A stretch of 64,000 nt of DNA, from the NCBI GenBank assembly GCA_903889905.1, contig CAISZI010000040.1:148-64147 (forward strand), written 5' to 3'. The notes under the pieces are model-generated. The model saw only the letters and a program-made list of their open reading frames with translations. It did no database searches and had not been told where the DNA came from. Below are positions 2,431-61,730 of the stretch, one piece after another; the first letter of the stretch is position 1, and each line of letters begins with the position of its first letter. Source of the stretch: Candidatus Wirthbacteria bacterium (lineage in GTDB: Bacteria; Patescibacteriota; CG2-30-54-11). A program made the position numbers and the translations under genes.

Positions 2431-3411
2431 TTATGAACTCGCCTGCGTGTTCACTTCGTAGCTGGTGTTGGTGGATTCGAAGAAATTGACGAGTTCCGGC
2501 ACATCGGTGGCTGTGGCCATCCATTTGGCGGGGTTGGCGGTTTTGAAATAGGGTTCAAAGCCCAGTTCCTCGAGCCGGCGGTCGGCCACGTATTCGACGT
2601 ACTGGTTCACATAATCGGCATTGAGGCCAAGAATGCCACTGGGCAGTGCGTCGTTATTGTATTCACGTTCCAGCTTGACAGCATCCACAACCATTTGGTG
2701 AATGCTTTTGGCAAAGTCTTCGGTCATGATATCGGGGTTTTCTTCCAGTATCGTTAAGAGCAGATTGATACCAAACTTGAGGTGCAAACTTTCGTCGCGC
2801 AAAATCCAGTCAATCAGCGAACCAAAGTTGCGCAGTACATTACGCTGGCGAAAACTGAGGGCCAGCATAAAGCCGCTGTAGAACCAGATTCCTTCCATGA
2901 CGATATTGTAAGCGACGAGGTTCCCCACGAGTTGGCGTTTGCCTTCGAGCGTGTTAACGTCGAGGTGCTTGCTGGTCATGCGATCCATGAATTGCAGCAC
3001 AAATTGTTCCTTGGCTTTCATCGAAGGATACTTTTCCAGCCCATGGTAGGCTTTGTCCATGTCGATTTTAAACGTCTCGAGCACGTATTCAAACGTCATA
3101 GAGTGGTTGGCTTCCTCGAACATTTGACGAGCCAGGTACATCTTGGTCTCGGGTGGCGCCACGTATGGGTAAACCCCAAAGGCCAGTGCATTGTTGACCA
3201 GGAATTCAGAGGGGTTGAAGTAGCTCATGAGGAAGGTGACCGCGTGCTTTTCGTCATCGGTCATGCGTTCCCAGTCGCCGAGGTCTTCGCCTAGCTGTAC
3301 TTCGTGTGGGAACCAGCTGTTGCGGATGGCCTGTTCATACAGGTCGTAAGCCCACTGGTATTTGACGGGTTTGAGGTTACCGATAAAGGTTGGGTTGTTG
3401 GTGAGGATCAT
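2431..3411 (-). CDS. nrdB: Ribonucleotide reductase class I beta subunit (R2)
   Basis: 326 aa with a ferritin-like diiron fold and conserved E/H ligands (EEANHSMTFEY, ESLHLKF). Downstream of nrdA on the same strand. Confidence 0.9.
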   Translation of the reverse strand: MILTNNPTFIGNLKPVKYQWAYDLYEQAIRNSWFPHEVQLGEDLGDWERMTDDEKHAVTFLMSYFNPSEFLVNNALAFGVYPYVAPPETKMYLARQMFEEANHSMTFEYVLETFKIDMDKAYHGLEKYPSMKAKEQFVLQFMDRMTSKHLDVNTLEGKRQLVGNLVAYNIVMEGIWFYSGFMLALSFRQRNVLRNFGSLIDWILRDESLHLKFGINLLLTILEENPDIMTEDFAKSIHQMVVDAVKLEREYNNDALPSGILGLNADYVNQYVEYVADRRLEELGFEPYFKTANPAKWMATATDVPELVNFFESTNTSYEVNTQASS

Positions 3412-3573: not shown

Positions 3574-6126
3574 TTACTGGCAACTTTCGCAATTCAAGCG
3601 TTCCTGCGGATCAACCGGGCAGGCGGTGCCGGGTTTGGTTTCAACAGTGCTGGAATCGGTGGTGGTGAGGTTAACGAAAGTGGTTGCGGTCGAGTCTTGG
3701 GTGATGGTTGTCGAGGCATTGATAGAGGAGTGAACGTCGCTTTGGCTTGTTGATGCGATTTTGAAACCACCAAACCCTTTACGGCCCATACTTTCGCGTT
3801 TATTGACGGTGCTGGTGCTCTGTTCGGCAGTGTGGCGTTGTTTCATGTGCAGGTAGTAGGTGCTTTTGAGGCCCTTCCGCCAGGCGTTTTGGTAGACAGC
3901 CATCATGTTACTGAGCTCGCGTGTCTCGAGGTAGATGTTACGACTAATGGCCTGGTCAACCCATTTCTGGGCTGCCGCAGCAATGTCGGTGTAGGCGTCG
4001 GCGTTGATCTCAAACGAGGTTTTGTACAGAGATTTGAGTTCGTGGGGAATGTCGGCAATGTCGGTGATGGTGCCGCGGTTCTCGACAATTTTGTCCTTGA
4101 GCTGGTCCCAGAGGTTGACCTTTTTCAGATCTTCAACCAGGTTCTGGTTGACCTCAATGAACTTGCCCGAGAGCGTATTGCGGCTGAAAATATTGGAAAA
4201 GTTAGGGTCGAGTCCAGGTGTTGTCCCGGCAATCAGGCCAATCGTGGCGTTGGGGGCGATGGCCAGCAGATCAGCATTGCGAATGCCTTGTTTGACTTTG
4301 GCGCGAAGTTTGTCCCAGTCCAGTTTGCTGCTTTTGTTGACATTGAGAGTCTGTCCGCGCTCTTCTTCAAGGATAGCCAGCGTATCGATCGGCACCATAC
4401 CTTTGGACCAACCCGATCCCTTGAAATTGGCATAACTGCCTTTGGTCTGGGCCAGATTGCAACTTTCGTCGATTGCGAGGTAGCTGATGAATTCCATGAC
4501 TTCGTCCATCAGGCGCGTGGCTTTGGGGCTGTCGTAGGGGATGCGCAGTTTTTCAATGGTTTCGGTAAAGCCCATCAAGCCCAGTCCGACCGGACGGTTT
4601 TTGCCATTGGAGTTTTTGGTCTCGGGCACGGGGTAGAGGTTGATATCAATCACGTTGTCCAGGCCAGCCACGGCTGAGCGAACAGCTTTTTCCATGCGAG
4701 TGAAATCGATCTTGTCTCCGTCCACAAAACGGCTGAGGTTGATGGAGGCCAGGTTACAGACAGCAATATTGTCACGGTCATTGGGTAGCGCGATTTCGGT
4801 ACAGAGGTTGGAGGAATGGATGACGCCTACATTTTGGGTCAGGGCGCGGACGTTCATGGCGTCTTTGAAGGTGATCCAGGGGTGCGAGGTGCTTTGCAGA
4901 CGGATGAGGATTTCCTTGAGCTGCTCGCGCGCCGAGATTTTTTTGAACATTTTGAGCTTGCCGGTGGTGGCCATTTGTACGTATTCGTTGTAACGCTTGC
5001 TGAATGACTGGCCAAACAGTTCGGGCAGGTCGCTGACTTCGGCCGGGTCAAACAAATACCACATTTCGTCATTCTCGACGCGGCGCATGAATTCGTCCGA
5101 GATCCAGGCGGCGATGTTGGAAGCGTAGGTGCGGCGGTAAGGATCGCCCGAGTTTTCGCGCAGTTCCATGAATTCGTCAAATTCGTAGTGCCAGTTTTCC
5201 ATATAGAAGCAGATGGAGCCGCGGCGTTTGCCACCCTGGGTAATGCCTTTGATGGTCACGTCCAGCACTTTCAGGAAAGGAATCACACCCGACGATTTGC
5301 CGTTAATGCTGCGGATGTAGGAGCCGATGGCGCGGATGTTGGTGACCGACACGCCAATGCCACCCGCGTATTTGGCCAGCTGCATGGTGTCGCTCACGGT
5401 TTTGCCAATGTTGTCGATGTCGTCGTACATGTTGAGGATGTAGCAGGAGCTGAGTTGTGGATGAGTGGTGCCGGAATTGAACAGGGTTGGAGTGGCGTGC
5501 AGATACTCGAGTTGGGACATATGGTGGTAAAAGCGAAGGGCCGAGGCTGTGGGATCGCTTTCATTCAGACTAAGTCCCATGGCCACGCGCATCCAGAAAG
5601 CCTGTGGGGTTTCGGTCAGTTTCTGGTTGCGGTCACGAAGCAGGTAACGGTCATGCAATGTAGAAAGGCCGAGGTACTTAAAAAGTTGATCGCGTTCCGG
5701 CACGAGCGCTGCGGCCAGTTTGGTCAAATCAAACTTTGTCGCCATGGCTTTGTCGAGCATTTCGATCTCAACGGCCAGTTTGATGTAGCGGGGAAAATAA
5801 TCCTGTTGCCACTGCGTCAAATCTGCGTCGGCTTCGTAGCCTTCCATGCATTCCTTGTAAATCGTGAGCAGCAGGAGGTTACGGGCAATGTGGTCGTAGT
5901 CCGGATCGTCTTTGATGTTCTGGCTGGCCGCAATGATCAGAGATTTGTCCAGGTCGCGTGTGGTGATGCCACTAAACAGGGTGAGCTCAAAGTCGCTGAT
6001 GATGCGCATGACTTTGTTGGGAATATCACTAAGGCCAGCAGCAGCCCGCTCGATGGCATTGTTGATCATGTCGGCGCGGTACGGCTCGGTGGCGCCACTG
6101 CGTTTCTGGACGAGGATTTGGGACAT
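3574..6126 (-). CDS. nrdA: Ribonucleotide reductase class I alpha subunit with an N-terminal ATP-cone
   Basis: 850 aa. ATP-cone (VQKRSGATEPYRADMINNAIERA), catalytic core (NLCTEI, SYYL motifs) and a C-terminal CESCQ cysteine pair. Confidence 0.9.
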   Translation of the reverse strand: MSQILVQKRSGATEPYRADMINNAIERAAAGLSDIPNKVMRIISDFELTLFSGITTRDLDKSLIIAASQNIKDDPDYDHIARNLLLLTIYKECMEGYEADADLTQWQQDYFPRYIKLAVEIEMLDKAMATKFDLTKLAAALVPERDQLFKYLGLSTLHDRYLLRDRNQKLTETPQAFWMRVAMGLSLNESDPTASALRFYHHMSQLEYLHATPTLFNSGTTHPQLSSCYILNMYDDIDNIGKTVSDTMQLAKYAGGIGVSVTNIRAIGSYIRSINGKSSGVIPFLKVLDVTIKGITQGGKRRGSICFYMENWHYEFDEFMELRENSGDPYRRTYASNIAAWISDEFMRRVENDEMWYLFDPAEVSDLPELFGQSFSKRYNEYVQMATTGKLKMFKKISAREQLKEILIRLQSTSHPWITFKDAMNVRALTQNVGVIHSSNLCTEIALPNDRDNIAVCNLASINLSRFVDGDKIDFTRMEKAVRSAVAGLDNVIDINLYPVPETKNSNGKNRPVGLGLMGFTETIEKLRIPYDSPKATRLMDEVMEFISYLAIDESCNLAQTKGSYANFKGSGWSKGMVPIDTLAILEEERGQTLNVNKSSKLDWDKLRAKVKQGIRNADLLAIAPNATIGLIAGTTPGLDPNFSNIFSRNTLSGKFIEVNQNLVEDLKKVNLWDQLKDKIVENRGTITDIADIPHELKSLYKTSFEINADAYTDIAAAAQKWVDQAISRNIYLETRELSNMMAVYQNAWRKGLKSTYYLHMKQRHTAEQSTSTVNKRESMGRKGFGGFKIASTSQSDVHSSINASTTITQDSTATTFVNLTTTDSSTVETKPGTACPVDPQERLNCESCQ

Positions 6127-6226: not shown

Positions 6227-6272
6227 ATACTAGATATAGGGTTGATAAGTTTGAGGTGACACAAGATGTTGG
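6227..6272 (-). promoter_or_regulatory. Two NrdR-box-like imperfect palindromes (ATACTAGATATAGG and ACACAAGATGTTGG) about 32 nt apart, upstream of nrdA
   Basis: Weak match to the NrdR box consensus acaCwAtATaTwGtgt. The tandem spacing is typical for NrdR. Confidence 0.25.
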
Positions 6273-6425
6273 TAAATGGTTAGAAATGGTCGCGACTCCT
6301 GGAAAAAGCATGTGTGATCGCAAGTCGGCCCCAGACAGGGGCGTTTTAACGAATTCGTCGCGAGTTGTCCAGAATTTTAACAGGGATGGTATAATTAATA
6401 GATAAATTTATTACAAAAACCAAGT

Positions 6426-9377
6426 ATGCAAACCCAAAATCAGCCTCAGCTAGCCTCGCAGCCCTCTCTGGAGCCACTTCTGGATGAAGAAGACGAACTG
6501 CAGCCTCTACCTGAAGTCTCTCCCGAAGCCATGCCTGAGGCTGCACCTCAACCCGAGCCTGAATCCCCAAAAAGTGAGGCGGTCCAAGCCTTTGACCAGG
6601 ATCAGGCGGCATTGGTGATGGAATTGATGAAAACAGGCCCCAAAGTTCTCGGTGCCTTCAAAATCGGCAACATGACCTACAAAATTGAAACGTACTATGA
6701 GGCATCCAAGGGAATCTGTTATCGCGTGGGAGCATTAGAGAAAAGCCAAGCAGCTGATGTGGCCGCCTTTATGTCAGAACGTGATTATGCTCACCTGGAT
6801 AAAGTCACGACGATTGAATTGATGCAATTTCCAATGCTGACCCAATTGATCGATCGCAGTGGTGGCGACAACAAAATTAATTTTTTTGTTCTTGATAAAC
6901 AGAAGTTCGCCGAACAGGAAGTGTTGCGTGGTATGGCGAATGCCAACACGGTCAGTATTCCACTCGAAGGGCAAGATAGTGGTGCGGAGATTTCCTACAT
7001 GGTAATGCGCGACGTTGCCAATGTCCGCCGTGCCTGGCTCGTGTTGTTTCCATTCAAAATTTCGAGCGGCGAAACGATAGTTGATAACAAGCAGCAATAT
7101 ACCGAAACAGTTGACAATGGAGACCGTGATTTGCATCGGTTTGTGGCGCAACAGCTTACTGAGCTAGTGCAAAAAGAACACGATAATCCCAAACAGGGTA
7201 AGAAATATACCAAGGCCATGCAAGCGTATTTGAGTAAGAGAAAAAACAGGCAACAATTTTTGCGTGAAGTGGCGCTGGAGTTACGTGGTCATGGCCATGG
7301 CGCGAGTAAAAAGGAAGAGTTGGATGTTCATCGTGAATACTTAAATCACGCATCCATGGATGAGCTCAAAGATATCTGCGGACTGATGTACACTGCCGCG
7401 ATACAGGACAAATCCATCAAGGCTTATGAAGACCGCGTCCGTACCCTGCAACAGCCAGAAATCCCTGTATCCGCGCCAGAAATGGCTGCGACAGGTTCAG
7501 GTGGTCTGGTGGATGCACTCAGATTGAAATTAATGAAACAAAGACTAGCCAAACCTTCGCCTGCGATTGACTCGACAGAGATAACACCTTTGCAACAGCA
7601 GCGTGCCGTTCAGAAGGAATCGTTAGCAAATTACGACAACTCCAGGGTGGTGGATGCAATGTCCGCTCAGCTTAGGTCAAAACCTGATCCAAAGCTAAAC
7701 GTTGTTCCGGATCTATTGGAAGCGTCAGCAGTGTTGTCGACTGAAGCAAGTGTTCAACCCATTACCGAGAGTAAGCAAGTTGGTGAAATGCAAGTCGATG
7801 CAGCGCCAGAAAAAGAACCGAAAACCATGACAGGGGCAGACACGGTCCAGGAACAAAGGTCATCAGCCGAACTGGAACACGATTTGGCGAAATTACTGAC
7901 TTCGGACAAAATTGAAAACATTGAATGGATCACTGATGTTATGACGAAACTGCTCAAATACCCCAACAAAGGCGTCGATCGTTCTCAACCACCCGATAGT
8001 CCGGAACAGTTGGCGGCCAAATTGCACTGTATCCAGCAGCATAACGCACAGGGCGAAGTTTCGTTGGCGCAGCTGGCGATAGACGCCGAGGAGTTTATCA
8101 AAAATAAAGTGGAGGGCCATGCATCTATGCCTTTTGCTTTGAAGTGGTATATCGATGAACGATATATGAAATTGTATGTCCTCGATTATCAACTGATGCG
8201 TGAGCGGGAGATTGCCAGTGAACCGCAATTTGAACAAGTTGACGATAAATTGTTACCGATCGACTACAAAAAAGATAGAAGTAAAACCCACAAAGAGCTA
8301 TTAAATTGGTGGGATGCAGATTGGATTAAAGAAATGGATGGTGCAGCTGTGTGGGCTAATTCATTATCTCAAAGAGTATCCTCAACGAGTCACAGTGAGG
8401 GTGAAACAAATTGGTTTATACAAAATGGCAGCAAAAGTGTATTTGAAGCAGATACACATAATAATTTGTTTATCTTAGATATGCAGAGTGAAGAATTTCT
8501 CAAAAATCTTCAGGATCATCAAGATTATCAACATGAGCAATCATTGGGTAAACAAATGACGGTCGAAGCTGTGCTCTGCGATTCTTGTAATGGCGCAATC
8601 CGTTTGAACTCCCGGTATTGTATGCTGGAAAAACCAAATGAGAATCAAGTGTTTCACTATTTTTTTATCATCAAAAAAGAGGATGGAAGCAACTGCGCGG
8701 CCAATGTCAGCTTGACGCTTGAGCACGGGAAGGTGGTATATAACAAAGTAAATAGTATGGGTGAGGGCTATATTGATCCTAGTAGAGTTGCAAATCCAGA
8801 ATTGTTTTTTACATCAGATGCTGCTTTGAGAGATTTAGATAGAGAGGATCTCAAAACACAAAAAGACGTTTTATTAACAAAACAAGAAATACAATTAATC
8901 GACAATGACAATAATTTAGACGCCACCCAACGTGAAGAACTAAGGCACAATTATTTGACTCGTGATACATCCAATCAGGTCTGCATCAAGGTGCAGGATT
9001 TGCTGTCGGAACATGGAGTGTCTGTCACCCGGCATAAATCAAAGAAAAAAGCTCAAACGCAGATGGCATTCAGTCATGCGGTGGGAAATCTAGGGGCAAG
9101 CTACCAGTTGGTGCCTGTGCGTGAGGACGAATCCATTGCAATTTTGGATCTCAAAGATGGCGAAACCAAGCCTTTTTATTTTGTCAAAGAATCCACCGGT
9201 GCGTCCAAGGACTTTGAAATCTTTACTGTCTGGCTCAACCGTGACGGCCCGATAGTCAGAGTGTGTGAAGGTCTGCAAGACCTGGATAACATGATGTTTG
9301 TCTTTGGCAAAAATAATGGCAAGATCTATACAAAAAATAGATTAAACAAAACTTTTTGGGACAGATTTAGCCGTTGA
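6426..9377 (+). CDS. Large orphan protein of 983 aa with no recognisable domain. It has an acidic, Pro-rich N-terminal ~60 aa, an internal CxxC...C element (CDSCNGAIRLNSRYC), and an AT-rich 3' third.
   Basis: Long uninterrupted ORF with its own AT-rich upstream region. No signal peptide or TM segment. The first ATG has no obvious SD. Confidence 0.6.
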   Translation: MQTQNQPQLASQPSLEPLLDEEDELQPLPEVSPEAMPEAAPQPEPESPKSEAVQAFDQDQAALVMELMKTGPKVLGAFKIGNMTYKIETYYEASKGICYRVGALEKSQAADVAAFMSERDYAHLDKVTTIELMQFPMLTQLIDRSGGDNKINFFVLDKQKFAEQEVLRGMANANTVSIPLEGQDSGAEISYMVMRDVANVRRAWLVLFPFKISSGETIVDNKQQYTETVDNGDRDLHRFVAQQLTELVQKEHDNPKQGKKYTKAMQAYLSKRKNRQQFLREVALELRGHGHGASKKEELDVHREYLNHASMDELKDICGLMYTAAIQDKSIKAYEDRVRTLQQPEIPVSAPEMAATGSGGLVDALRLKLMKQRLAKPSPAIDSTEITPLQQQRAVQKESLANYDNSRVVDAMSAQLRSKPDPKLNVVPDLLEASAVLSTEASVQPITESKQVGEMQVDAAPEKEPKTMTGADTVQEQRSSAELEHDLAKLLTSDKIENIEWITDVMTKLLKYPNKGVDRSQPPDSPEQLAAKLHCIQQHNAQGEVSLAQLAIDAEEFIKNKVEGHASMPFALKWYIDERYMKLYVLDYQLMREREIASEPQFEQVDDKLLPIDYKKDRSKTHKELLNWWDADWIKEMDGAAVWANSLSQRVSSTSHSEGETNWFIQNGSKSVFEADTHNNLFILDMQSEEFLKNLQDHQDYQHEQSLGKQMTVEAVLCDSCNGAIRLNSRYCMLEKPNENQVFHYFFIIKKEDGSNCAANVSLTLEHGKVVYNKVNSMGEGYIDPSRVANPELFFTSDAALRDLDREDLKTQKDVLLTKQEIQLIDNDNNLDATQREELRHNYLTRDTSNQVCIKVQDLLSEHGVSVTRHKSKKKAQTQMAFSHAVGNLGASYQLVPVREDESIAILDLKDGETKPFYFVKESTGASKDFEIFTVWLNRDGPIVRVCEGLQDLDNMMFVFGKNNGKIYTKNRLNKTFWDRFSR

Positions 9378-9392
9378 TTAAACAGATTAAAA

Positions 9393-9444
9393 TTGACACT
9401 TTGACTAATTTTGCTTGACAGTCGATCTCCCCATACGCTATATT
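9393..9444 (+). promoter_or_regulatory. Sigma70-like promoter for the carAB leader (tandem TTGACA at 9393 and 9415; TATATT at 9439-9444)
   Basis: TTGACA, 18-nt spacer, TATATT, read directly. Confidence 0.5.
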
Positions 9445-9510
9445 CCCCAAGGGTCAAATTTAGGGAGCATCGATTTGTACCAAACTTGCCAGGCAACTTC
9501 ATGAAAGTCA

Positions 9511-9549
9511 TAGCCTTTCTACCCGAAACGGTAGAAGGGCTATTTTTTT
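9511..9549 (+). terminator. Intrinsic terminator/attenuator in the carA 5' leader. A 13-bp stem (TAGCCTTTCTACC/GGTAGAAGGGCTA) with a GAAA-type loop, then 7 T. About 110 nt before the carA ATG.
   Basis: Hairpin plus U-run read directly. The inner ORF starting at ATG 9501 (MKVIAFLPETVEG...) would be translated through the left arm. Confidence 0.55.
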
Positions 9550-9659
9550 ATGAAAAGACCGGGGGAATTGTTGTTAAGTGTTGTCAACCAGGCAAGCAGT
9601 GTTGTTGGTAGTAAGGATCCCTCGACAAAGCCTCGGGATGACAGCCATAAGGAGCCAAC

Positions 9660-11018
9660 ATGAAGTCTGAAAAAGCGGTTCTTGTTCTCAAAGACGGGAC
9701 ACGATTTGAAGGGCGGGCGATAGGGAAGCGCGGCATTTCGGTCGGTGAAGTGGTGTTCAATACCTCGATGACCGGGTATCAGGAAATTCTGACTGATCCG
9801 TCGTATGCGGGGCAGATCATCACGTTCACCTATCCGCTGATCGGCAATTACGATACCAACTACGAAGATTTGGAGTCGCGTGGGGTGTTTTGTCGCGGTG
9901 CCATTGTCAAAGAGCTGGAAGATGAGGGAAACAGCTGGCGCGGAAAGCATAATCTGGAAGATTTCCTGATGCGGAATAACGTGATTGGGATTGCGGGAAT
10001 TGATACACGCAAATTAACACGGCATATCCGGAATTTTGGCGTTTTGAACGGCGCGATCGTCTCGGGACAGGAGCTGACGGATATTGTGGTGGCGGATGTC
10101 AAAGCCCGGATCGACGCCTTTACGGATCGTGAAATGATCCGTGAGGTGAGCTGCAAAGCTGTGTATCACTATGATGCGCCAACCGAACCATGGGTAACTT
10201 TTGAGCATTGGACGCGGGACAAGGCAAGACGGGATGCGGGAGGAGATGGTGAGTTGAAGGGGTTTTTTATGCCAAAAGCGCGGGGGAAAGGTGATGACCC
10301 AGCGGTCATTGCGAAGGAGTCTGCGACTGCGGCAAGCTTGCAGCATGAAATGAGAGCGGAGAGAGGCAGCACGATTGCCACGTCATCCCATCGGAATGGT
10401 ATTCCTTGCAATGACAGCGTAGATAAGGCACAAAACCATAGAAAGATTTTTCATTTGGTGGCTATGGATTTTGGTATCAAGACGAACATACTTCGTATGC
10501 TCTATAACGAAGGCTTTGACATTACCGTGGTGCCACAGGACACGAGTTTTGAAACCATTGTGGCTCTTCAACCGGATGGCATTTTCCTCTCCAATGGCCC
10601 GGGCGACCCCAAATCCATTCCGGATGCCATCAAAGTGATTGGTGAACTGATTCATTACTTTCCGACCATGGGCATATGCCTGGGGCATCAACTCTTGGCA
10701 CTGGCCACGGGAGGAGACACTTATAAGTTGAAGTTTGGGCACCGTGGCGGCAACCATCCGGTCAAAGATTTGAAGACAGGGCGTGTTTACATTACTTCAC
10801 AAAACCATGGTTATGCTGTGAATCAGGATTCACTGGTAGGGACTGGACTAAGGGTTACTTTAGTTAATCTCAACGACCAGACTGTCGAAGGCATGGATCA
10901 CGAAAACTTGCCGGTGTTTTCGGTACAGTATCATCCCGAGGCAAGCCCGGGGCCGCAGGATAACCATTATTTGTTTGGGAAGTTCAGGAAGCTGATTGAA
11001 AAGCCGAGGATGGGGTAA
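9660..11018 (+). CDS. carA: Carbamoyl-phosphate synthase small (glutaminase) subunit. Carries an ~80-aa low-complexity insertion between the N-terminal domain and the GATase domain.
   Basis: CarA N-domain plus class I GATase (GICLGHQLL catalytic Cys, HPE). The insertion WTRDKARRDAGGDGELKGFFMPKARGKGDDPAVIAKESATAASLQHEMRAERGSTIATSSHRNGIPCNDSVDKAQNHR makes the protein 452 aa instead of ~380. Confidence 0.9.
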   Translation: MKSEKAVLVLKDGTRFEGRAIGKRGISVGEVVFNTSMTGYQEILTDPSYAGQIITFTYPLIGNYDTNYEDLESRGVFCRGAIVKELEDEGNSWRGKHNLEDFLMRNNVIGIAGIDTRKLTRHIRNFGVLNGAIVSGQELTDIVVADVKARIDAFTDREMIREVSCKAVYHYDAPTEPWVTFEHWTRDKARRDAGGDGELKGFFMPKARGKGDDPAVIAKESATAASLQHEMRAERGSTIATSSHRNGIPCNDSVDKAQNHRKIFHLVAMDFGIKTNILRMLYNEGFDITVVPQDTSFETIVALQPDGIFLSNGPGDPKSIPDAIKVIGELIHYFPTMGICLGHQLLALATGGDTYKLKFGHRGGNHPVKDLKTGRVYITSQNHGYAVNQDSLVGTGLRVTLVNLNDQTVEGMDHENLPVFSVQYHPEASPGPQDNHYLFGKFRKLIEKPRMG

Positions 11019-11102
11019 GAGTACCGCCCCCTGCCCCCTCCTAATTTAGGTGGGGGTGTGTTTGTCGGGGCGATTCATGAATCGCCCTCTTTAAAAAAGG
11101 AG

Positions 11103-14100
11103 ATGTGCGTGCCAAAACGAGAAGAAATCAAAAAAGTACTAGTGATCGGGTCGGGGCCGATTGTGATCGGGCAGGCGGCGGAGTTTGACTATGCGGGGGC
11201 GCAGGCGTGTTTGTCGCTGCGCGAGGAAGGCGTTGAGACAGTGCTGATCAATTCCAATCCCGCCACGATCATGACGGACTCGGACATTGCCGACCGGATA
11301 TATATCGAACCCATGACTGTGGAAGTAATCGACCAGATCCTGGAGCGCGAAAAACCACAGGGCGTGCTGCCAACGCTTGGCGGCCAGACTGGTTTGAACC
11401 TGGGTATGAAGTTGGCCAAAGAGGGAATTTTGGCCAAACACGGTTGCGAACTTCTGGGTACACCCATGGATACAATCTACAAGGCCGAAGACCGGCAGGC
11501 ATTCAAGAATTTGATGCAGGAAATTGGCGAACCGATTCCGGCTTCTGTGATTGCCACCAATTTGGATGAAGCCAATGTATTGAAAATGGAAATCGGGTTA
11601 CCACTGATTATTCGGCCGGCATATACCCTGGGTGGAACCGGTGGCGGGATTGCAACCAGCGATGCTGAATTTGCCGAAATCGTGCACCGGGGCTTGGAAT
11701 CCAGCCCGATCCACCAAATCCTGGTGGAACAGTACATTGGCGGGATGAAGGAAATTGAGTTTGAAGTTATGCGCGATAGTGGTGACAACTGCATTACGAT
11801 TTGTTCGATGGAAAACTTTGACCCGGTGGGTATTCACACGGGTGATTCTGTGGTTGTCGCGCCTTGCCAGACGCTCACGGATCGGGAATACCAGATGATG
11901 CGCTCCGCATCGATTAATATTATCCGCGCGCTCGGGGTAGAAGGTGGCTGCAATGTGCAGTTTGCACTGGATACGTTGAGCTTTCAGTACTATGTGATCG
12001 AGGTCAACCCGCGCGTCAGCCGTTCGTCGGCACTCGCATCCAAAGCGACTGGTTACCCGATTGCGCGCATTGCAGCCAAAATTGCGATTGGGATGCAGCT
12101 GGATGAAATTCCCAATGCCATTACCAAAAAAACCGTGGCGGCTTTTGAACCAGCCATCGATTATTGCGTGCTCAAAATCCCGCGTTTTCCCTTTGATAAA
12201 TTCCCCGAAGGCGACCGTAGCCTGGGCAGCCAGATGAAAGCTACGGGTGAAGTCATGTCCATTGACCGCACTTTTGAGGGCGCCGTTAAGAAAGCATTGC
12301 GTTCGATGGATACCAAGCCCAACCTCGACGAGTGGCTCAAACACGACAAATATTGGGCCAAAGCCACGGATGTGCGGTTGTCTCTGATTATCGCAGCGTT
12401 GCGCCGCGGCATTACGGTAGAAACGATCAATGCGGACACGCAGATTGACTTGTGGTTTCTGCGCAAGTTGCGCAATTTGGTCACCATGGAGGAGCAACTG
12501 GCAAAACTGGCGGCATTGAAAGATGAAGAAAAGAATTTACAGCTTGAAGCATTATTAAAGCGAGCCAAGCAGTTTGGTTTTGCCGATCATGAGATTGTTG
12601 CTTTGACTGACGTGACAGACACTCAACTGAAGCAGTTGCTGGGAACAATGCATTGTGCCCCTACGTTTAAGATGGTGGATACCTGTGCCGGTGAATTTGA
12701 GGCCGTCACACCGTATTTTTATTCCACCTGGGAAGACGAGAACGAAGCTGTGCCGTCAGGCAAACAGGACAAGGCCATTGTCATCGGTTCTGGCCCGATC
12801 CGCATCGGGCAGGGGATTGAGTTTGATTACTGTTCGGTGCATGCGTCGCTTGCCTTGCGTGAGATGGGGATTGAGTCAATCATGATCAACAACAATCCCG
12901 AAACCGTGAGTACCGACTTTGATGTGTCTGATCGCCTCTACTTCGAGCCGCTCGAGCTAGAAGACGTGGTGAATGTTTACAACAACGAATCAGTTGGACT
13001 CGATGATGGCAAGAAGCCCAAATTCATTGTCCAGTTTGGTGGACAGACATCGCTCACCGTCGCCTCACAACTGGCCAAGGCCGGCGTGATTCCGCATGCC
13101 GGGCAAGTGGATAGTATTGAGCTGGCTTCCAACCGAGGTCGTTTTGAAAAACTACTGATGGCACTCAACATTCCCTTTCCCCGTGGCCATGCCGCCAAAA
13201 CTGCGGCCGAAGCACTCATTGTAGCCGAAGAAATTGGCTTCCCGGTTCTGGTGCGGCCTTCCTTTGTCCTGGGCGGTCGCGCCATGGAAATCGTCTATTC
13301 TCTGGACCACATGCGCGAACTGATTGATTATGTCTTTTCCGTCGTTCCCGACGCGCCGGTGCTGGTGGACAAATACATAGACGGCAAAGAAGCCGAAGTC
13401 GACCTGTTGTTTGACGGCAGCGACGTGCTGATTCCCGGCATCATGGAACACATTGAGCGCGCTGGTATCCATTCGGGCGACAGTATGGCGGTGTATCCGA
13501 CCCAGGGTCTGACATTGGAACAGATCGACAAAATGGTGGACTACTCCATGCGGCTCGCCAAGGCGGTTGGCAACATTGGGCTGACCAACATCCAGTTTGT
13601 CTTGCAGGGAGGTGACGTTTTCGTCATTGAAGCTAACCCGCGTGGCAGCCGGACGGTGCCGTTTCTGAGTAAAGTGACGGGCATTCCCATGGTCAAACTT
13701 GCGACACAGCTTTTGTACGGCGCAAAACTTAAGGATTTGGGTTACTTTCCGGGACTTTACCCCTCGAGCGGCGTGGTGGCGGTCAAAGCGCCGGTTTTTT
13801 CCTTTGCCAAACTCACGAACGTGCGCACCAAACTGGGGCCCGAAATGAAATCCACGGGTGAAGTCATGGGCATCGACCGCACCTACCCCAACGCCTTGCG
13901 CAAGGCATTCATCGCCTCAGGTATCCAGATTCCGCTTGAGGGCAAGGTTTTTGTCACTGTGGCGAATCGTGATAAGGAAGAAGCTTTGAGTATTGTGCGC
14001 GGCTTTGCAGAATTGGGTTATGCAATTGTGGCAACCGAAGGTACGGCACATTTCCTTTCTGAACATGAAATTAAAGCCGCCGTTGTGGGGAAAATTTCCG

Positions 14101-14345
14101 ACGATCCCAAGAATTCCATTTTGAAACAGATCAAAAACAAGCACATTCAACTGGTCATCAACACTCCGGAAGCCAGTAAGGACGCCGAAAGCGACGGCCC
14201 GCAAATCCGCACGGCGGCGATCCAATATGGTGTGCCTTGCCTGACATCGCTCGACACTGCACGCGCCTTGCTTTTTAGCTTGCGTGCCCGACGGCAGGGA
14301 AAGGATTTGAAAGTGCGAACCATGGCAGAATATTTGGAGAGTTAG
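11103..14345 (+). CDS. carB: Carbamoyl-phosphate synthase large subunit. Two ATP-grasp halves, an oligomerisation domain and a C-terminal MGS-like allosteric domain.
   Basis: Duplicated ATP-grasp motifs and the MGS-like tail (GKVFVTVANRDKEEA...). Start chosen at ATG 11103 behind an AAGGAG RBS; the ORF track's upstream M is probably not used. Confidence 0.9.
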   Translation: MCVPKREEIKKVLVIGSGPIVIGQAAEFDYAGAQACLSLREEGVETVLINSNPATIMTDSDIADRIYIEPMTVEVIDQILEREKPQGVLPTLGGQTGLNLGMKLAKEGILAKHGCELLGTPMDTIYKAEDRQAFKNLMQEIGEPIPASVIATNLDEANVLKMEIGLPLIIRPAYTLGGTGGGIATSDAEFAEIVHRGLESSPIHQILVEQYIGGMKEIEFEVMRDSGDNCITICSMENFDPVGIHTGDSVVVAPCQTLTDREYQMMRSASINIIRALGVEGGCNVQFALDTLSFQYYVIEVNPRVSRSSALASKATGYPIARIAAKIAIGMQLDEIPNAITKKTVAAFEPAIDYCVLKIPRFPFDKFPEGDRSLGSQMKATGEVMSIDRTFEGAVKKALRSMDTKPNLDEWLKHDKYWAKATDVRLSLIIAALRRGITVETINADTQIDLWFLRKLRNLVTMEEQLAKLAALKDEEKNLQLEALLKRAKQFGFADHEIVALTDVTDTQLKQLLGTMHCAPTFKMVDTCAGEFEAVTPYFYSTWEDENEAVPSGKQDKAIVIGSGPIRIGQGIEFDYCSVHASLALREMGIESIMINNNPETVSTDFDVSDRLYFEPLELEDVVNVYNNESVGLDDGKKPKFIVQFGGQTSLTVASQLAKAGVIPHAGQVDSIELASNRGRFEKLLMALNIPFPRGHAAKTAAEALIVAEEIGFPVLVRPSFVLGGRAMEIVYSLDHMRELIDYVFSVVPDAPVLVDKYIDGKEAEVDLLFDGSDVLIPGIMEHIERAGIHSGDSMAVYPTQGLTLEQIDKMVDYSMRLAKAVGNIGLTNIQFVLQGGDVFVIEANPRGSRTVPFLSKVTGIPMVKLATQLLYGAKLKDLGYFPGLYPSSGVVAVKAPVFSFAKLTNVRTKLGPEMKSTGEVMGIDRTYPNALRKAFIASGIQIPLEGKVFVTVANRDKEEALSIVRGFAELGYAIVATEGTAHFLSEHEIKAAVVGKISDDPKNSILKQIKNKHIQLVINTPEASKDAESDGPQIRTAAIQYGVPCLTSLDTARALLFSLRARRQGKDLKVRTMAEYLES

Positions 14346-14629: not shown

Positions 14630-16516
14630 ATGGCGAAGTTTCTGGTCATCGATTTTGACAGCACATTTGTGAGATCGGAAGCCCTGGAGGAATTGGCGGC
14701 AGTTTGCCTCAAGTCGAGTACAAAGCGGGAGGCAATCCTGGCCCGCATCAAACAGATCACCAAAGACGGCATGGAAGGCAAACTGGGGTTTAAAGCCAGC
14801 CTCGAACAACGCCTCAAACTGCTTGCCGCGAGTCGTAATGACTTACCACTCGTGATCGCGCGTCTCAAACGCAAAATATCGCCTTCGATTTTGCGCAACA
14901 AATCTTTTTTTCATGACTTCAAGGACCAGATTTATATTGTTTCGGGTGCGTTTAAGGAAATTGTCGATCCGATTGTGGCGCAATTTGGCATTGACCCCAG
15001 CCACGTGCTTGCCAACGAATTTATCTACGACAGCAAAGGCAAGATCACCGGTTTTGATCACAATAATTTGCTGGTGCAACCCGAAGGCAAAGTCAAAGCG
15101 ATTTTGAGCTTGAAGCTGCACGGCGAGATTGACGTGATTGGCGACGGCTACACCGATTTACAAGTGCGCGAACTAGGCGCCGCAAACCGCTTCATTGCCT
15201 TTACCGAAAACGTGAAACGTCAGATTGTGATGGACAAAGCCGACCATATAGCGCCAAATTTTGACGAAGTGCTTTTCCTGAACAATTTTCCGCGTGCTAT
15301 TTCCTTTCCCAAAAATCGCATTCAGGTGGTGCTGCTGGAAAACATCCATCCACGCGCTGTGGCGATGTTCGAACAGGAAGGATTTAAAGTCGAAGTCCAT
15401 GACAAAAGCCTGCCCGACGACAAGCTGACTGCTGTCATTGCCAAAGCGCACGTGCTAGGTATTCGTTCCCGTACCCAACTCACGCCTGAGCTGTTGAAGC
15501 AGGGGAAACACCTGCTGGCAGTTGGCGCTTTTTGCATCGGGGTGGAACAGATCGCGCTCGACAAAGCCGCCAGCCAGGGCGTGGTCGTGTTTAATGCGCC
15601 TTACAGCAACACCCGTTCGGTCGTCGAACTCGCATTGGGCGAGATGATCATGTTGCTCCGGCAAATTACAGATAAAAATGCCAAGCTGCATCAGGGTATC
15701 TGGGACAAACAGGCAGTCGGCTCCAATGAAATCCGCGGCAAAAAGCTGGGCATCATTGGTTACGGCAATATTGGGACACAACTCTCGGTGCTGGCCGAAA
15801 ACCTGGGCATGGAGGTTTACTATTACGACCTGGTTGAGAAACTTTCCCTTGGCAATGCCAAACGGTGCCGATCTATGTCAGAACTTTTAAAAAAAGCCGA
15901 TGTCGTCACTGTGCATGTGGATGGCCGCAAGGAGAACAAGAACCTGATTGGTGCCAGGGAATTTGGCCAGATGAAGGACGGGGTGGTATTTTTGAACCTG
16001 AGCCGTGGACAGATTGTTGACCTCGGGGCGCTGACCAAAGCCATCCAGTCGGGCAAAGTGCGAGGTGCCGGCCTGGATGTGTTTCCCACCGAACCGCGTG
16101 GCCAAGACGAACCGTTTCTTTGCACACTCCAAAATTTGCCCAACGTCATCCTGACGCCACATATTGGTGGCAGCACCGAGGAAGCGCAGTTCAATATCGG
16201 TGAATTTGTGGCGACCAAATTGATCGATTATATCAACACCGGCAGCTCATTCATGAGTGTGAATTTTCCCAATATCCAGCTGCCACCCATCCAAAAATCC
16301 CACCGGCTGCTGCATATTCACCGCAATGTGCCGGGCATGCTGGCCCAGATCAATGGCATTTTTGCCCAGCATGGTATCAACATCGAAGGCCAGTACCTCA
16401 AGACCAAGGAAAACATCGGTTATTGTATCACCGACATCAACCGCAAATACTCGCCCAAATTGATCGACGAACTCAAGCAGATTCCAGACACGATTTCATT
16501 TCGTATTTTATACTAA
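14630..16516 (+). CDS. serBA: Fusion protein: phosphoserine phosphatase (HAD, DFDST motif), then D-3-phosphoglycerate dehydrogenase (NAD-binding GIIGYGNIG) with a C-terminal ACT domain
   Basis: 628-aa single ORF. N-terminal ~215 aa carry HAD motifs I-III. The remainder is a type-I PGDH with an ACT tail. Confidence 0.85.
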   Translation: MAKFLVIDFDSTFVRSEALEELAAVCLKSSTKREAILARIKQITKDGMEGKLGFKASLEQRLKLLAASRNDLPLVIARLKRKISPSILRNKSFFHDFKDQIYIVSGAFKEIVDPIVAQFGIDPSHVLANEFIYDSKGKITGFDHNNLLVQPEGKVKAILSLKLHGEIDVIGDGYTDLQVRELGAANRFIAFTENVKRQIVMDKADHIAPNFDEVLFLNNFPRAISFPKNRIQVVLLENIHPRAVAMFEQEGFKVEVHDKSLPDDKLTAVIAKAHVLGIRSRTQLTPELLKQGKHLLAVGAFCIGVEQIALDKAASQGVVVFNAPYSNTRSVVELALGEMIMLLRQITDKNAKLHQGIWDKQAVGSNEIRGKKLGIIGYGNIGTQLSVLAENLGMEVYYYDLVEKLSLGNAKRCRSMSELLKKADVVTVHVDGRKENKNLIGAREFGQMKDGVVFLNLSRGQIVDLGALTKAIQSGKVRGAGLDVFPTEPRGQDEPFLCTLQNLPNVILTPHIGGSTEEAQFNIGEFVATKLIDYINTGSSFMSVNFPNIQLPPIQKSHRLLHIHRNVPGMLAQINGIFAQHGINIEGQYLKTKENIGYCITDINRKYSPKLIDELKQIPDTISFRILY

Positions 16517-20767: not shown

Positions 20768-23104
20768 ATGTTTCGTCAGAAAGTGATCATCATGGGCGCG
20801 GCGGGGCGAGATTTTCACAACTTCAACGTCTACTTCCGCGACAAGGAAGAATTTGAGGTTGTCGCTTTTACGGCGACGCAGATTCCCAATATTGACGGCC
20901 GCAAATACCCGGCCGAACTGGCGGGTACGCTTTACCCCGATGGCATCGATATTTACCGCGAAGAAGAGCTGTCGCAACTGATCAAACGTTTTGATGCCCG
21001 TACCGTCGTTTTTGCCTATTCGGATGTTAGCCATGAGTACGTCATGCATCGCGTTTCATTGGCCAATGCCGTGGGGGCCAATTTCCTGCTGCTCGGAGTG
21101 AGGGACACCATGATTAAGTCGATCAAACCCGTGATTTCGATCTGTGCCGTGCGCACCGGCAGTGGCAAAAGTCAGACATCGCGTGCGGTGGTTGGTTTTT
21201 TGAAGACGCAAGGCCTCAAGGTTGTGGCCGTGCGCCACCCTATGCCTTATGGCGACCTGGCCAAACAGGCGGTGCAGCGTTTTGCCACTTACGATGACTT
21301 TGCCAAACACGAGTGCACGTTTGAGGAGCGCGAAGAATATGAGCCCTACATTGAGCAGGGATTGGTGATTTATGCCGGTGTGGATTATGGTGCCATTCTG
21401 ACGCAAGCCGAAGCTGAGGCCGATGTGATTGTCTGGGATGGTGGCAACAACGACACACCTTTTTTCGTTCCGGACCTTAATATCGTTGTCGTCGACCCAC
21501 ACCGTCCGGGCCATGAGCTTAAGTATTATCCTGGCGAAACCAACCTGCGCATGGCCGACGTGATTGTGATCAACAAAATGGACAGCGCCCAGCCTGAGGG
21601 CATCGAAACCGTCAAAGCCAACATTGCCAAATACAACAGTCGCGCCCGGGTGATCGAAGCGGATTCGATTATCGACGTAGCTGATCCGACGCTGATTAAC
21701 AATATGCGCGTGCTCGCCATTGAAGATGGTCCAACCGTGACACACGGTGGTATGGGGTATGGTGCCGCCTACATTGCAGCGGAAAAGTTCAAAGCCTGGC
21801 AAATCGTCGATCCGCGGCCATTTGCGGTGGGTTCAATCAAGGCAACCTTTGCCAAATACAGCCACCTCGACAAAGTCCTGCCGGCCATGGGTTATGGCTC
21901 CGCGCAAATGCAGGAACTCGAGGACACGATCAACGCGAGCAATGCCGAAGCGGTTGTAATTGGTACTCCCGTGGATCTGGGCAAGCTGTTGCATATCAAT
22001 AAACCCTATACCCGCGTCACTTACCGTTTGGCGGAACGTGGCGACCTCAAACTTGCCGAGGTTTTACAACCGTTCATTCCTGCCACAACTATCCCAACTG
22101 TTCAAAGTCCCGCTTCAACCATCACCCCAAGGAGTGTCTCCATGCCAGCGACAAACCTTCCCCAGAACTCGGTTCGGCATTTACTCCATTTCAAAGATTA
22201 CACCGGCGCCGAACTGCGCGAGATCCTCGACCTGGCGCACAAAATCAAAGCCAGTCCCAAGGAATACTGGTTTGCTCTTGACCACCAGACGCTGGTCATG
22301 CTGTTTCAAAAGAATTCGACCCGCACCCGCGTCTCCTTTGAAACCGGGCTCACTCAGCTCGGCGGCCACGCCATTTTTCTGGATTGGAAAAATACCCAGC
22401 TGGACAAAGCGAGCCTTCCTGATGAAGCGCGCTGCCTGGCTCGCTATGGCAACATGATCGCCGCGCGGCTCAAAAAGCACAGCGACATCGAGCAGATTGC
22501 CGCCTATAGTCGCGTACCAGTGATCAACATGCTGTGCGAGAAATACCATCCCTGCCAGTCACTCGCCGATTTGCTCACCATCGAAGAACATTTGGGCAAA
22601 CTGGAAGGCAAGAATATTGTCTACACTGGCATTGCCAACAATGTCTCCAACACATTGGTTGACGCCGGCACCAAGCTTGGCGCCAATGTCATCCTGGCCG
22701 TACCCGAAAAAGACCCGGATGCCCTGGACCCCGAACTTGAAGCCGCTGCCATGGCCACTGGTCGCTATCACGAAACCACAGATTTGCTCGAAGTCATGCC
22801 CACAGCCGACGTCGTCTACACCGACACCTGGGTCAATATGGAGCATTTTGACGACCCCAAATTCGCCGCCGAGAAAGCCCGCCGCGAGAAGCTTTTCGCG
22901 CCCTACCAGGTGAGTGCCGCGCTGCTGGAGAAGACCGGAAGCCATGCCCTGATCATGCACGACCTCCCAGCCCACGATGGCTATGAAATCACTCGGGATG
23001 CCATTGAGCACCCCAATTCCATCATCTTCGACCAGGCCGAGAACCGGCTGCATGCCCAGAAGGCAGTCATGGTGTGGTTGCTGCAGAAGAATAAGATGGT
23101 ATAA
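20768..23104 (+). CDS. Fusion protein. The N-terminal ~440 aa are a COG2403-like P-loop NTPase (cyclic 2,3-diphosphoglycerate-synthetase-family 'predicted GTPase'; Walker A AVRTGSGKSQTS, Walker B IVWDGGNND). The C-terminal ~330 aa are an ornithine/putrescine carbamoyltransferase (STRTRVSFE, HPCQ, HDLPA).
   Basis: 778-aa uninterrupted ORF with an AGGAG RBS. OTC motifs are unambiguous. The N-terminal family assignment is by eye. Confidence 0.75.
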   Translation: MFRQKVIIMGAAGRDFHNFNVYFRDKEEFEVVAFTATQIPNIDGRKYPAELAGTLYPDGIDIYREEELSQLIKRFDARTVVFAYSDVSHEYVMHRVSLANAVGANFLLLGVRDTMIKSIKPVISICAVRTGSGKSQTSRAVVGFLKTQGLKVVAVRHPMPYGDLAKQAVQRFATYDDFAKHECTFEEREEYEPYIEQGLVIYAGVDYGAILTQAEAEADVIVWDGGNNDTPFFVPDLNIVVVDPHRPGHELKYYPGETNLRMADVIVINKMDSAQPEGIETVKANIAKYNSRARVIEADSIIDVADPTLINNMRVLAIEDGPTVTHGGMGYGAAYIAAEKFKAWQIVDPRPFAVGSIKATFAKYSHLDKVLPAMGYGSAQMQELEDTINASNAEAVVIGTPVDLGKLLHINKPYTRVTYRLAERGDLKLAEVLQPFIPATTIPTVQSPASTITPRSVSMPATNLPQNSVRHLLHFKDYTGAELREILDLAHKIKASPKEYWFALDHQTLVMLFQKNSTRTRVSFETGLTQLGGHAIFLDWKNTQLDKASLPDEARCLARYGNMIAARLKKHSDIEQIAAYSRVPVINMLCEKYHPCQSLADLLTIEEHLGKLEGKNIVYTGIANNVSNTLVDAGTKLGANVILAVPEKDPDALDPELEAAAMATGRYHETTDLLEVMPTADVVYTDTWVNMEHFDDPKFAAEKARREKLFAPYQVSAALLEKTGSHALIMHDLPAHDGYEITRDAIEHPNSIIFDQAENRLHAQKAVMVWLLQKNKMV
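23018..23104 (+). repeat. Direct repeat, copy 1: the true 3' end of the OTC-fusion gene
   Basis: About 90% identical to 23498-23585 over ~88 bp. The last 40 bp are identical. Confidence 0.8.
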
Positions 23105-23148
23105 TCAATTCTCACCTTGATATCTTATTTTTATAAGTCTGAGAATTT

Positions 23149-23490
23149 ATGTCGGAAATCGGCATTGGTGATTATGGTATTGCTGCCGATGGCGAGTACG
23201 ATCCGGCAGGCGAAATGCATGATTCGAGATCACCAGAAATATGTGTAGGGGAGTTACGATCTCTGAATGAAAGTATGCATAGTTTAGTAACGGAGTTACG
23301 TTATTTATATACGGAGATTGAAGCCTTGCGAGCGCAAGGAAATCTCAATAAACAAGATCAAAGAAAGTTAAAAAGACTCCAAAACGACGCACCAAGCACA
23401 TTAAATGTGCTGGAAAAGAAAAGGAAAAAATTTGCCACGCGACGCCAGTGGTATATTGATCATGATCCGAGTTATGCCGGCTTTAAGTAA
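23149..23490 (+). CDS. Hypothetical small coiled-coil protein of 113 aa in an AT-rich insert
   Basis: ORF between the two copies of the OTC 3'-end repeat. No family recognised. Confidence 0.4.
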   Translation: MSEIGIGDYGIAADGEYDPAGEMHDSRSPEICVGELRSLNESMHSLVTELRYLYTEIEALRAQGNLNKQDQRKLKRLQNDAPSTLNVLEKKRKKFATRRQWYIDHDPSYAGFK

Positions 23491-23497
23491 TCAAACT

Positions 23498-23585
23498 CCT
23501 TCATCTTCCACCAGGCCGAAAACCGCATGCATACTCAGAAGGCATTGCTGGTGTGGTTGCTGCAGAAGAATAAGATGGTATAATC
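23498..23585 (+). repeat. Direct repeat, copy 2: a relic, displaced copy of the OTC 3' end. Still encodes ...IFHQAENRMHTQKALLVWLLQKNKMV*.
   Basis: Alignment to 23018-23104 read directly. Confidence 0.8.
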
Positions 23586-23605
23586 TATAACCTCGCTGCA
23601 ATGCG

Positions 23606-23983
23606 GTGGAATCTATCTATTTTTATCGAGGTTGGAAAATGGCTAAATCGACTGTTGAATTAACTGCTGAGGGTAAATCCCAACAAGCGTTTTTGGATGA
23701 GATCAAACTCGATGAAAATAACGCACACGCAGACATTATAAAGGATATTGATGAATTGATTTTAGAAATTGATACAAAGGGTGAAGTCGAAGCCGATCGG
23801 TACTCAGCAGCTATTAAGAATTTTAATGATTTTTTTGATATTCGTTTGCCTCAAAACTTTGCTATTGATTATGTTCACATTCAAATTCTACTTGATTTAG
23901 TTGAAGCAGAATTGTCGCGCTTGAGTAAAACTGACAGTGAGCCGACTTTGGATCAGGTTGGCGGGCTTGAGGGGCAGGGGTAG
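23606..23983 (+). CDS. Hypothetical small acidic protein (likely start at MAKSTVEL, 23639)
   Basis: ORF in the AT-rich islet. No family recognised. Confidence 0.35.
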   Translation: MESIYFYRGWKMAKSTVELTAEGKSQQAFLDEIKLDENNAHADIIKDIDELILEIDTKGEVEADRYSAAIKNFNDFFDIRLPQNFAIDYVHIQILLDLVEAELSRLSKTDSEPTLDQVGGLEGQG

Positions 23984-24162
23984 TGAGGACGTCGCTGGCG
24001 GATCCAGATTTAGCCAAATAATCTGAAATTATTAACTCAATTTTCATGGAGGTGCAAACTGGACGAGATTGATGATAGTGGTTACCAAGGAGAGACAGAT
24101 CGACCGAATGCCTCTCTGACGGTGGTTCAAATTGCGGCAAAAGTATTAGCTGATCAGCAGCA

Positions 24163-24453
24163 ATGACTGCTCATCCTGTAGATTTAGGAGAATCTCCGGC
24201 ACTGGAGCAACAAGAGGACAAGAGCAATTCAATTTTGGCATTGCAGCAGAAAGAATTGGCAGCAAAGTATCAAGAGAATATTTTATTAGCTGAGTACAAT
24301 GCCCTAAAATCTAGACCATCCACTGCACTTGCAGATATTGATGCCGCCTTCGATCGTTTAGTTGCAGCATCCACGCGAGTAAATAATTTGGAGATAGACT
24401 TGCACAAATTATGCAAGGGGCCAGGCTCAGATGAAAATGGTTCATTTAGATAA
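24163..24453 (+). CDS. Hypothetical small coiled-coil protein of 96 aa
   Basis: ORF in the AT-rich islet. No family recognised. Confidence 0.35.
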   Translation: MTAHPVDLGESPALEQQEDKSNSILALQQKELAAKYQENILLAEYNALKSRPSTALADIDAAFDRLVAASTRVNNLEIDLHKLCKGPGSDENGSFR

Positions 24454-60659: not shown

Positions 60660-60671
60660 TTGGAGTTTGAC

Positions 60672-61682: not shown

Positions 61683-61730
61683 GTGTCGGGTTTCCTGGTG
61701 CTCACTAAGCATCAATTATCTAGAATTGCG

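Follow-up and report, generated by a model that had tools for sequence, protein, structure and literature searches.

The described genes closest to the one reported here are ORFan hypothetical genes of under-sampled lineages. Like it, they belong to no family, fall below the surrounding core genes in codon adaptation and in the G+C (GC) content of third codon positions (GC3), and carry long, non-conserved linkers that are modeled with low confidence. Polymorphic toxins and secreted effectors, as well as zinc-ribbon and zinc-finger modules built on CxxC motifs, share some of its features. The gene resides in a 64,000-nucleotide stretch of DNA from Candidatus Wirthbacteria bacterium (GenBank assembly GCA_903889905.1, contig CAISZI010000040.1), which was analyzed in full and is hereafter termed the window. 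Positions 6426..9377 of the forward strand form a single open reading frame (ORF), which the ORF listing and its translation give as 983 amino acids (aa) from an ATG start. On balance, we consider it fairly probable that this ORF encodes a weakly expressed, lineage-restricted, cytoplasmic protein composed of two modules.

The only known homologue of the 983-aa protein is a 992-aa protein, termed P0002, which is colinear with it over the full length and has no frameshifts. The two proteins are 36% identical overall when aligned with MAFFT, and their colinearity extends from the first residues, where five of eight are identical, to the C-terminus. BLASTP aligns residues 53-378 to P0002 with 50% identity (E = 2e-102). 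Within this region, the conserved N-terminal module (N-domain) is 54% identical over 289 columns that include one single-residue gap. The C-terminal module (C-domain) is 33% identical to the C-terminus of P0002 when compared alone, with E-values of 8e-43 (BLASTP) and 4e-42 (phmmer). As judged from these two sequences, the comparison shows that 6426-9377 is a genuine, constrained gene that is found in very few sampled genomes. The alignments likewise show two conserved modules, and their order, to be common to both proteins.

An earlier note on this DNA, made from the letters and a list of ORFs, had named a gene-calling artefact as a finding that would refute its reading. On such a view, the ORF would be either a chance long reading frame or a pseudogenized remnant. 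The ORF has no Shine-Dalgarno sequence ahead of it, its codon fit is weak, and it encodes no known domain, all of which could be taken as signs of an artefact. However, an ORF of 2952 nucleotides (nt) would be very unlikely to arise by chance in DNA of ~45% GC. Moreover, about half of the well-annotated genes in the window, such as nrdA, uvrB and relA, also lack an obvious Shine-Dalgarno sequence; the presence of this element was therefore dropped as a discriminator of real genes. Because the homologue is colinear and matches both the N-domain and the C-domain significantly, the ORF is neither a chance reading frame nor a pseudogene with frameshifts, and a chimeric assembly junction at the step in GC content is likewise excluded. 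Thus, on the evidence of P0002, the artefact reading is effectively refuted, and we regard it as extremely improbable. No earlier start is possible for the ORF, since its ATG is the first start codon after the stop that precedes it in frame.

A word-indexed search of 5.8 billion protein clusters (5.8e9) returned only the 983-aa protein itself and P0002. The same two proteins, and no others, were recovered when 1.84 billion (1.84e9) representatives of clusters, which stand for ~15 billion proteins, were scanned in full by HMMER profile search. The phyletic distribution that the earlier note proposed to examine thus comprises two proteins. Profiles from Pfam, NCBIfam, PADLOC and PHROGs were applied to the whole protein, to its three segments and to P0002. 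No Pfam family was assigned at E ≤ 0.01 for the whole protein or at E ≤ 10 for each segment, and the sole Pfam rows are DUF6487 at 0.11 and HELP at 0.21. NCBIfam produced no family, PADLOC produced no match at E ≤ 1, and PHROGs produced none for the 983-aa protein. PDB sequences searched with the protein and with per-module profiles gave no match, the best E-values ranging from 0.33 to 1.6. Scans of DNA in the genome_contigs, metagenome_contigs and viral_contigs collections detected no relatives, and a back-translated RRAWLVLFPF pattern found only two chance motif matches in the metagenome contigs. No relatives were detected by tblastn in 50,697 phage and 72,556 plasmid records. IMG/VR yielded none either, and the 64-kb window contains no paralogue. 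These results uphold the earlier descriptions of the protein as an orphan that belongs to no characterized family and has no recognizable domain.

Much of this orphan status may be a sampling effect. The closest foreign CarA in the 5.8 billion clusters shares 52% identity, along its full length, with that encoded in the window. The best foreign NrdA is 71% identical and the next are 65-68% identical, and all of these, like the closest CarA, reside on short metagenomic contigs. With relatives this distant even for CarA and NrdA, the orphan status is therefore partly attributable to sampling. The host lineage appears to be isolated and very poorly sampled.

The 983-aa protein has a calculated mass of 111 kDa, an isoelectric point of ~5.2 and a net charge of -35, and by composition it is soluble and acidic. 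Neither a signal peptide, nor a twin-arginine motif, nor a transmembrane helix was apparent from Kyte-Doolittle hydropathy and N-terminal composition. The highest mean over 19 residues is only 0.85, and therefore no transmembrane helix is expected; the N-terminus is polar and, as the earlier note had it, acidic. The absence of Sec, Tat and transmembrane signals suggests that the protein stays in the cytoplasm.

Four regions can be distinguished by alignment to P0002 and by AlphaFold2 (AF2) models, which were built from only two sequences and whose predicted local distance difference test score (pLDDT) is 35 for the full-length protein and 52 for the N-domain. Residues 1-52 (6426..6581) begin with a Q-rich segment (MQTQNQPQ), after which comes a tail that is acidic and rich in Pro. 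The acidic, Pro-rich stretch that was noticed earlier, EPLLDEEDELQPLPEVSPEAMPEAAPQPEPE, corresponds to residues 16-46, and residues 1-50 carry a net charge of -10. P0002 begins with MPTQVQTQ and likewise carries an acidic tail. In the AF2 model, residues 1-52 have no secondary structure and a pLDDT below 40; this tail is probably disordered.

The N-domain spans residues 53-345 (6582..7460). Low-confidence AF2 models depict a mixed alpha/beta portion and then a helical bundle. Its invariant motifs are rich in polar residues and include IDRSxGD, FAEQEVLRG, MRDVxNxRRAWLVLFPF, SGET, EHDxP, RGHGxGxS and VHREYL. Such a pattern would be typical of an enzyme or of a domain that binds a specific ligand.

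A variable linker, residues 346-640 (7461..8345), joins the two modules. It is modeled as coil at residues ~346-479 and 597-640 and as helices at residues 480-596, mostly with pLDDT below 40. Its identity to P0002 ranges from 0.12 to 0.30 per 40-residue bin, and the bin of residues 601-640 has 55% gaps and 12% identity. Neither BLASTP nor phmmer found a significant alignment between residues 380-650 and the linker of P0002.

The C-domain, which is predicted to be beta-rich, comprises residues 641-983 and ends with the stop codon (8346..9377). It consists of two conserved blocks (residues ~681-760 and ~881-960) that flank a variable insert (~761-880), and AF2 places beta-strands at residues 681-779 and 893-948. 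Self-BLASTP revealed no internal repeats in the protein, and the ORF contains no tandem repeats.

The C-domain also carries the CxxC...C element that the earlier note placed near residue 720, which consists of C718-D-S-C721 and C732 (8577..8621) in the translation. In having these three cysteines, the protein resembles CxxC zinc-ribbon and zinc-finger modules. However, the alignment shows that C721 is replaced in P0002, so the element is present as described and is not a motif of the family. In addition, there is no second CxxC, and no zinc-finger model in Pfam matches. The residues that are kept in P0002 are C718, C732, H744, C757 and C947. These show spacings of 11-14 residues rather than an arrangement in paired knuckles, and AF2 places them on neighboring predicted beta-strands.

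The most likely mechanism, although we hold it with low confidence, is that of a tethered two-module protein. The N-domain would carry out catalysis or bind a ligand, the C-domain would serve as a binding or targeting module, and the flexible acidic linker would merely set the distance between them. A more doubtful proposal is that the two modules represent novel folds or belong to a novel enzyme family, as a signature of a deep-branching, barely sampled lineage, and that the protein is a partner of the supercluster of biosynthesis genes in the window. If so, it might tether or regulate enzymes of nucleotide or amino-acid biosynthesis, and the 54% identity of the N-domain would reflect a strong, housekeeping-like constraint. 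A confident structure for one of the modules might uncover a new fold or connect the family with a known superfamily.

Polymorphic toxins and secreted effectors are, like this protein, large, modular, acidic, stand-alone and without a Sec signal, and they too have an N-terminal region that is probably disordered. The protein might therefore be considered an exported effector or toxin, with its polar, Q/S/P-rich N-terminus acting as a non-Sec secretion signal, or alternatively an anti-phage defense protein of the sensor-effector type. Consistent with such roles, it is a large, low-GC, stand-alone orphan whose extreme N-terminus is conserved and polar (MxTQxQxQ), with the probably disordered acidic stretch following in both proteins, and its N-domain is dense in invariant polar residues in the manner of an enzyme. 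However, PADLOC gives no match, and Pfam, at E ≤ 10, detects no domain known from toxins, trafficking or secretion. Among the window ORFs that were scanned with Pfam, none is a secretion-system gene or a small downstream candidate for an immunity gene; carA follows directly, with its own promoter-like site. The gene's context is one of nucleotide and amino-acid biosynthesis. Moreover, conservation is found at both ends of the protein and variability in its middle, the reverse of the polymorphic-toxin pattern, in that the C-terminus is conserved and not swapped. A family with two members is also atypical, since defense and effector families are usually widespread. We therefore judge an exported effector or toxin, or an anti-phage defense protein, to be unlikely.

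The 3' third of the gene is distinguished by its base composition. The earlier note had remarked on the low GC content of the last ~1.1 kb, and this is borne out in 400-nt windows, whose GC content is 0.38-0.43 over positions 8200-9400, compared with 0.46-0.49 in the 5' two-thirds of the ORF and ~0.50-0.55 in the neighboring genes. The 1-kb window with the lowest GC content in all 64 kb starts at position 8101 (GC 0.391, z = -3.7), and two further troughs of like depth are located at ~23.0-24.7 kb and ~60.0-61.4 kb. Comparison of codon usage with the neighbors, which had also been proposed, points the same way. At 0.453, the GC3 of the ORF is the lowest among the 45 ORFs scored (range 0.45-0.685), and its codon fit is near the lowest in the window. 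The C-domain alone has a GC3 of 0.40.

The 3' part had been thought to be acquired or fast-evolving. It does evolve faster, given the 33% identity of the C-domain versus 54% for the N-domain. By contrast, acquisition finds no support, because the C-domain is homologous in P0002; the AT-rich third was thus not added separately, and the two-module arrangement is older than the divergence of the two genomes. By this alignment, the AT-rich third is neither a recent fusion nor a separate acquisition.

Three causes would together account for the AT-richness. First, the C-domain is intrinsically rich in Phe, Tyr, Met, Ile, Asn and Lys (FYMINK) in both homologues. With a FYMINK fraction of 0.29 for this domain, compared with 0.27 in P0002, amino-acid composition contributes to the AT bias. 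Second, the AT-rich patches lie in variable segments that bear insertions and deletions. The AT-richest patch, residues 601-700 (8226..8525; GC 0.35, GC3 0.28), straddles the boundary between linker and C-domain and contains a segment that is missing from P0002. Another patch, residues 801-850 (8826..8975; GC 0.33, GC3 0.28, identity 0.20), is inside the variable insert of the C-domain, where the alignment is gapped and identity is low. The three AT-richest 50-residue bins (601-650, 651-700 and 801-850) have GC3 values of 0.26-0.30 and identities of 0.14-0.26, and conserved bins of the C-domain have GC contents of 0.39 (701-750) and 0.46 (901-950). The simpler idea that AT-richness tracks low conservation was rejected for the ORF as a whole, as it is true of those three bins only. 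Third, codon selection may be weak over the entire gene. In the window, the highest GC3 values belong to nrdA, prs, asnS and nusA, and the lowest to ORFs with poor annotation. This gradient fits one that is linked to expression, in which a gene of low expression is under weak codon selection. The 983-aa gene, which has the lowest GC3 of all and a codon fit close to the lowest, is probably such a gene.

Atypical base composition, here in the form of the lowest GC3 and the lowest-GC kilobase, is a property of genomic islands and mobile cargo, and it is explained equally well by weak expression and amino-acid composition. The alternative is that a donor of lower GC content, for instance a plasmid, a phage or a different lineage, supplied the gene, or just its AT-rich 3' third, by horizontal transfer, with insertion between the operons nrdAB and carAB. 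Beyond composition and codon fit, this view could draw on the presence of a single gene with its own promoter amid housekeeping operons, and on the fact that, in the nearest relatives sampled, the ORF is found beside neither nrdA nor carA. Indeed, no relative of the ORF is present on the contigs that carry the closest relatives of CarA (L001-L005) and NrdA (L008-L011), and on the contig of the nearest NrdA relative (L011) the gene divergent from nrdA is asparaginase-like by eye. The P0002 genome also does not appear among the closest listed CarA or NrdA matches, so it is either incomplete or not closely related, and the latter would fit sharing across distant lineages. However, the sampled relatives, with NrdA identities of 65-71%, are too distant for missing synteny to mean much, and metagenome-assembled genomes are incomplete, so the absence of CarA and NrdA matches from the P0002 genome is weak evidence.

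Hallmarks of mobile elements, moreover, are lacking. Around the ORF there are no flanking direct or inverted repeats beyond short chance repeats. No Rfam family, tRNAs included, was found in the whole window, nor in the intergenic region upstream of the ORF in particular, and no integrase is encoded among the adjacent ORFs that were scanned with Pfam. The phage, plasmid and IMG/VR searches also failed to yield a relative, and the 3' third, being homologous and colinear in P0002, was not added separately here. Horizontal acquisition is thus quite unlikely, and the gene has probably been inherited vertically.

Several observations nevertheless weigh against our preferred reading, that of a lineage-restricted protein of two modules that is weakly expressed and stays in the cytoplasm. 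The relation between conservation and GC3 is not general (Spearman rho 0.27, p = 0.26), and the linker at residues 351-600 is poorly conserved yet not AT-rich. Low GC3 could also be the sign of an old horizontal acquisition. The ORF is missing from the contigs that carry the closest NrdA and CarA relatives, such that conservation of its position is not seen, and transfer between the host lineage and that of P0002 is possible. A cytoplasmic location is suggested solely by the missing Sec, Tat and transmembrane signals, and non-classical export is possible. Finally, the AF2 models, at the pLDDT values given above, are unreliable. Foldseek comparison of these models with PDB and BFVD returned only matches at noise level (E ≥ 0.04, with all template-modeling scores below 0.2), and the structure prediction and fold search that the earlier note had recommended thus gave no usable match.

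Pfam matches to the neighboring genes confirm that the gene lies between nrdAB and carAB. On the reverse strand are nrdA (3574-6126) and nrdB (2431-3411), and on the forward strand are carA (9660-11018) and carB (11058-14345). The nrdA gene is divergent from the 983-aa ORF and is separated from it by 299 nt with a GC content of 0.39, which falls to 0.25 in the final 60 nt. The gene therefore does have an AT-rich upstream region of its own. A candidate extended -10 promoter element, TGGTATAAT, can be read from the sequence at positions 6387..6395 of the forward strand, ~30 nt 5' of the ATG. It is a perfect match to the extended -10 pattern. A scan for consensus promoters did not report this site because no recognizable -35 hexamer accompanies it.

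The nearest terminator-like site is a 14-bp, G+C-rich hairpin followed by a T-run, at 9510..9543 of the forward strand, 133 nt past the stop codon of the 983-aa ORF. Because this hairpin sits downstream of a promoter-like site for carA (9415-9444), it more likely belongs to the carA leader than to the 983-aa gene. This arrangement, coupled with the gene's own -10 candidate, makes the gene look monocistronic, and we infer that it is transcribed by itself from the extended -10 promoter. As the earlier note had stated, then, the gene appears to have no operon partner, with nrdA divergent on one side and carA provided with its own promoter-like site and leader hairpin on the other.

The upstream region of nrdA contains two 16-mers that resemble NrdR boxes, at positions 6227-6242 and 6259-6274, 32 bp apart. 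The sequence ATACTAGATATAGGGT is the sole match in 64 kb to ACACWATATATWGTGT with at most three mismatches, and the second NrdR-box-like 16-mer, ACACAAGATGTTGGTA, has five mismatches. The pair is accompanied by a promoter-like site on the minus strand (6217-6189) and is probably the NrdR operator of nrdAB. It is located more than 110 bp from the -10 element of the 983-aa ORF.

On the other side of the ORF, the promoter-like site for carA (TTGACA-18-TATATT) is near consensus. The carA leader (window positions 9415-9659) contains the 14-bp hairpin and U-run at 9510-9543, which precede carA. Its predicted RNA fold has a z-score of -3.3, and the leader matches no Rfam family. It also contains a mini-ORF of nine codons, which starts with TTG at position 9475 and is preceded by AGGGAG. 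The leader may be a transcription attenuator for carAB.

The CarA protein itself (9660-11018) is unusual in length. CarA proteins usually have ~360-400 aa, and that of the window has 452 aa, with ~135 residues inserted between the CPSase small-chain domain (residues 8-133) and the GATase domain (residues 268-444). Most CarA relatives align just to these two halves.

Four other genes in the window encode enzymes with unusual fusions of domains. The product of 110-1801 joins a threonine-dehydratase-like PALP domain (IlvA) to LeuA_dimer, and that of 14630-16516 joins a SerB-like HAD domain to a 2-hydroxyacid dehydrogenase and an ACT domain, which are SerA-like. At 20768-23104, an N-terminal extension of 470 aa with a weak match to CobW/HypB/UreG GTPases is fused to ornithine carbamoyltransferase (OTCase), and at 24714-26033 aspartate carbamoyltransferase is fused to an MGS-like domain. 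These fusions sit in a supercluster of ~30 kb that comprises genes for pyrimidine, arginine and serine metabolism (carAB, pyrB, pyrF, pyrC, pyrK and prs).

The two other low-GC stretches of the window differ in content. Between the OTCase fusion and pyrB, a 1.6-kb stretch of GC ~0.40 (23004-24700) carries small ORFs of 113, 125 and 96 aa. None has a Pfam match above the curated cut-off, and there is one weak, sub-threshold match among them (E = 0.0024). A direct repeat of 106 nt, with copies at 23004-23109 and 23483-23588 that are 84% identical, duplicates the 3' end of the OTCase gene and looks like an insertion scar. The third trough (60000-61700; GC 0.40) covers an ORF of 340 aa (60660-61682), which has only a weak match to an MmyB-like ligand-binding domain. 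This ORF and one of 635 aa with an HD domain (61731-63638) have low GC3 and poor codon fit, as does the 983-aa ORF.

The 983-aa gene offers a cautionary case, in that low GC content and the lack of homologues in a gene located among core genes need not indicate foreign DNA in an under-sampled lineage. Although the family is undescribed, nothing found here indicates a system of a new kind. The gene points to no new mechanism, and it adds one more real, constrained, lineage-restricted hypothetical protein to those already known.

Of the known systems, ORFan hypothetical genes of under-sampled lineages provide the best match. As in such genes, homologues are confined to two proteins despite exhaustive search. 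The colinear homologue and the conserved N- and C-domains mark this as a coding gene under constraint. The protein differs from most ORFans by its unusual length and by its two well-conserved, apparently folded modules, one of which, the N-domain, retains 54% identity between two genomes that do not emerge as close relatives in searches with the housekeeping proteins CarA and NrdA. Its length and conserved modules thus make it look like a constrained, functional gene rather than a young or decaying ORFan.

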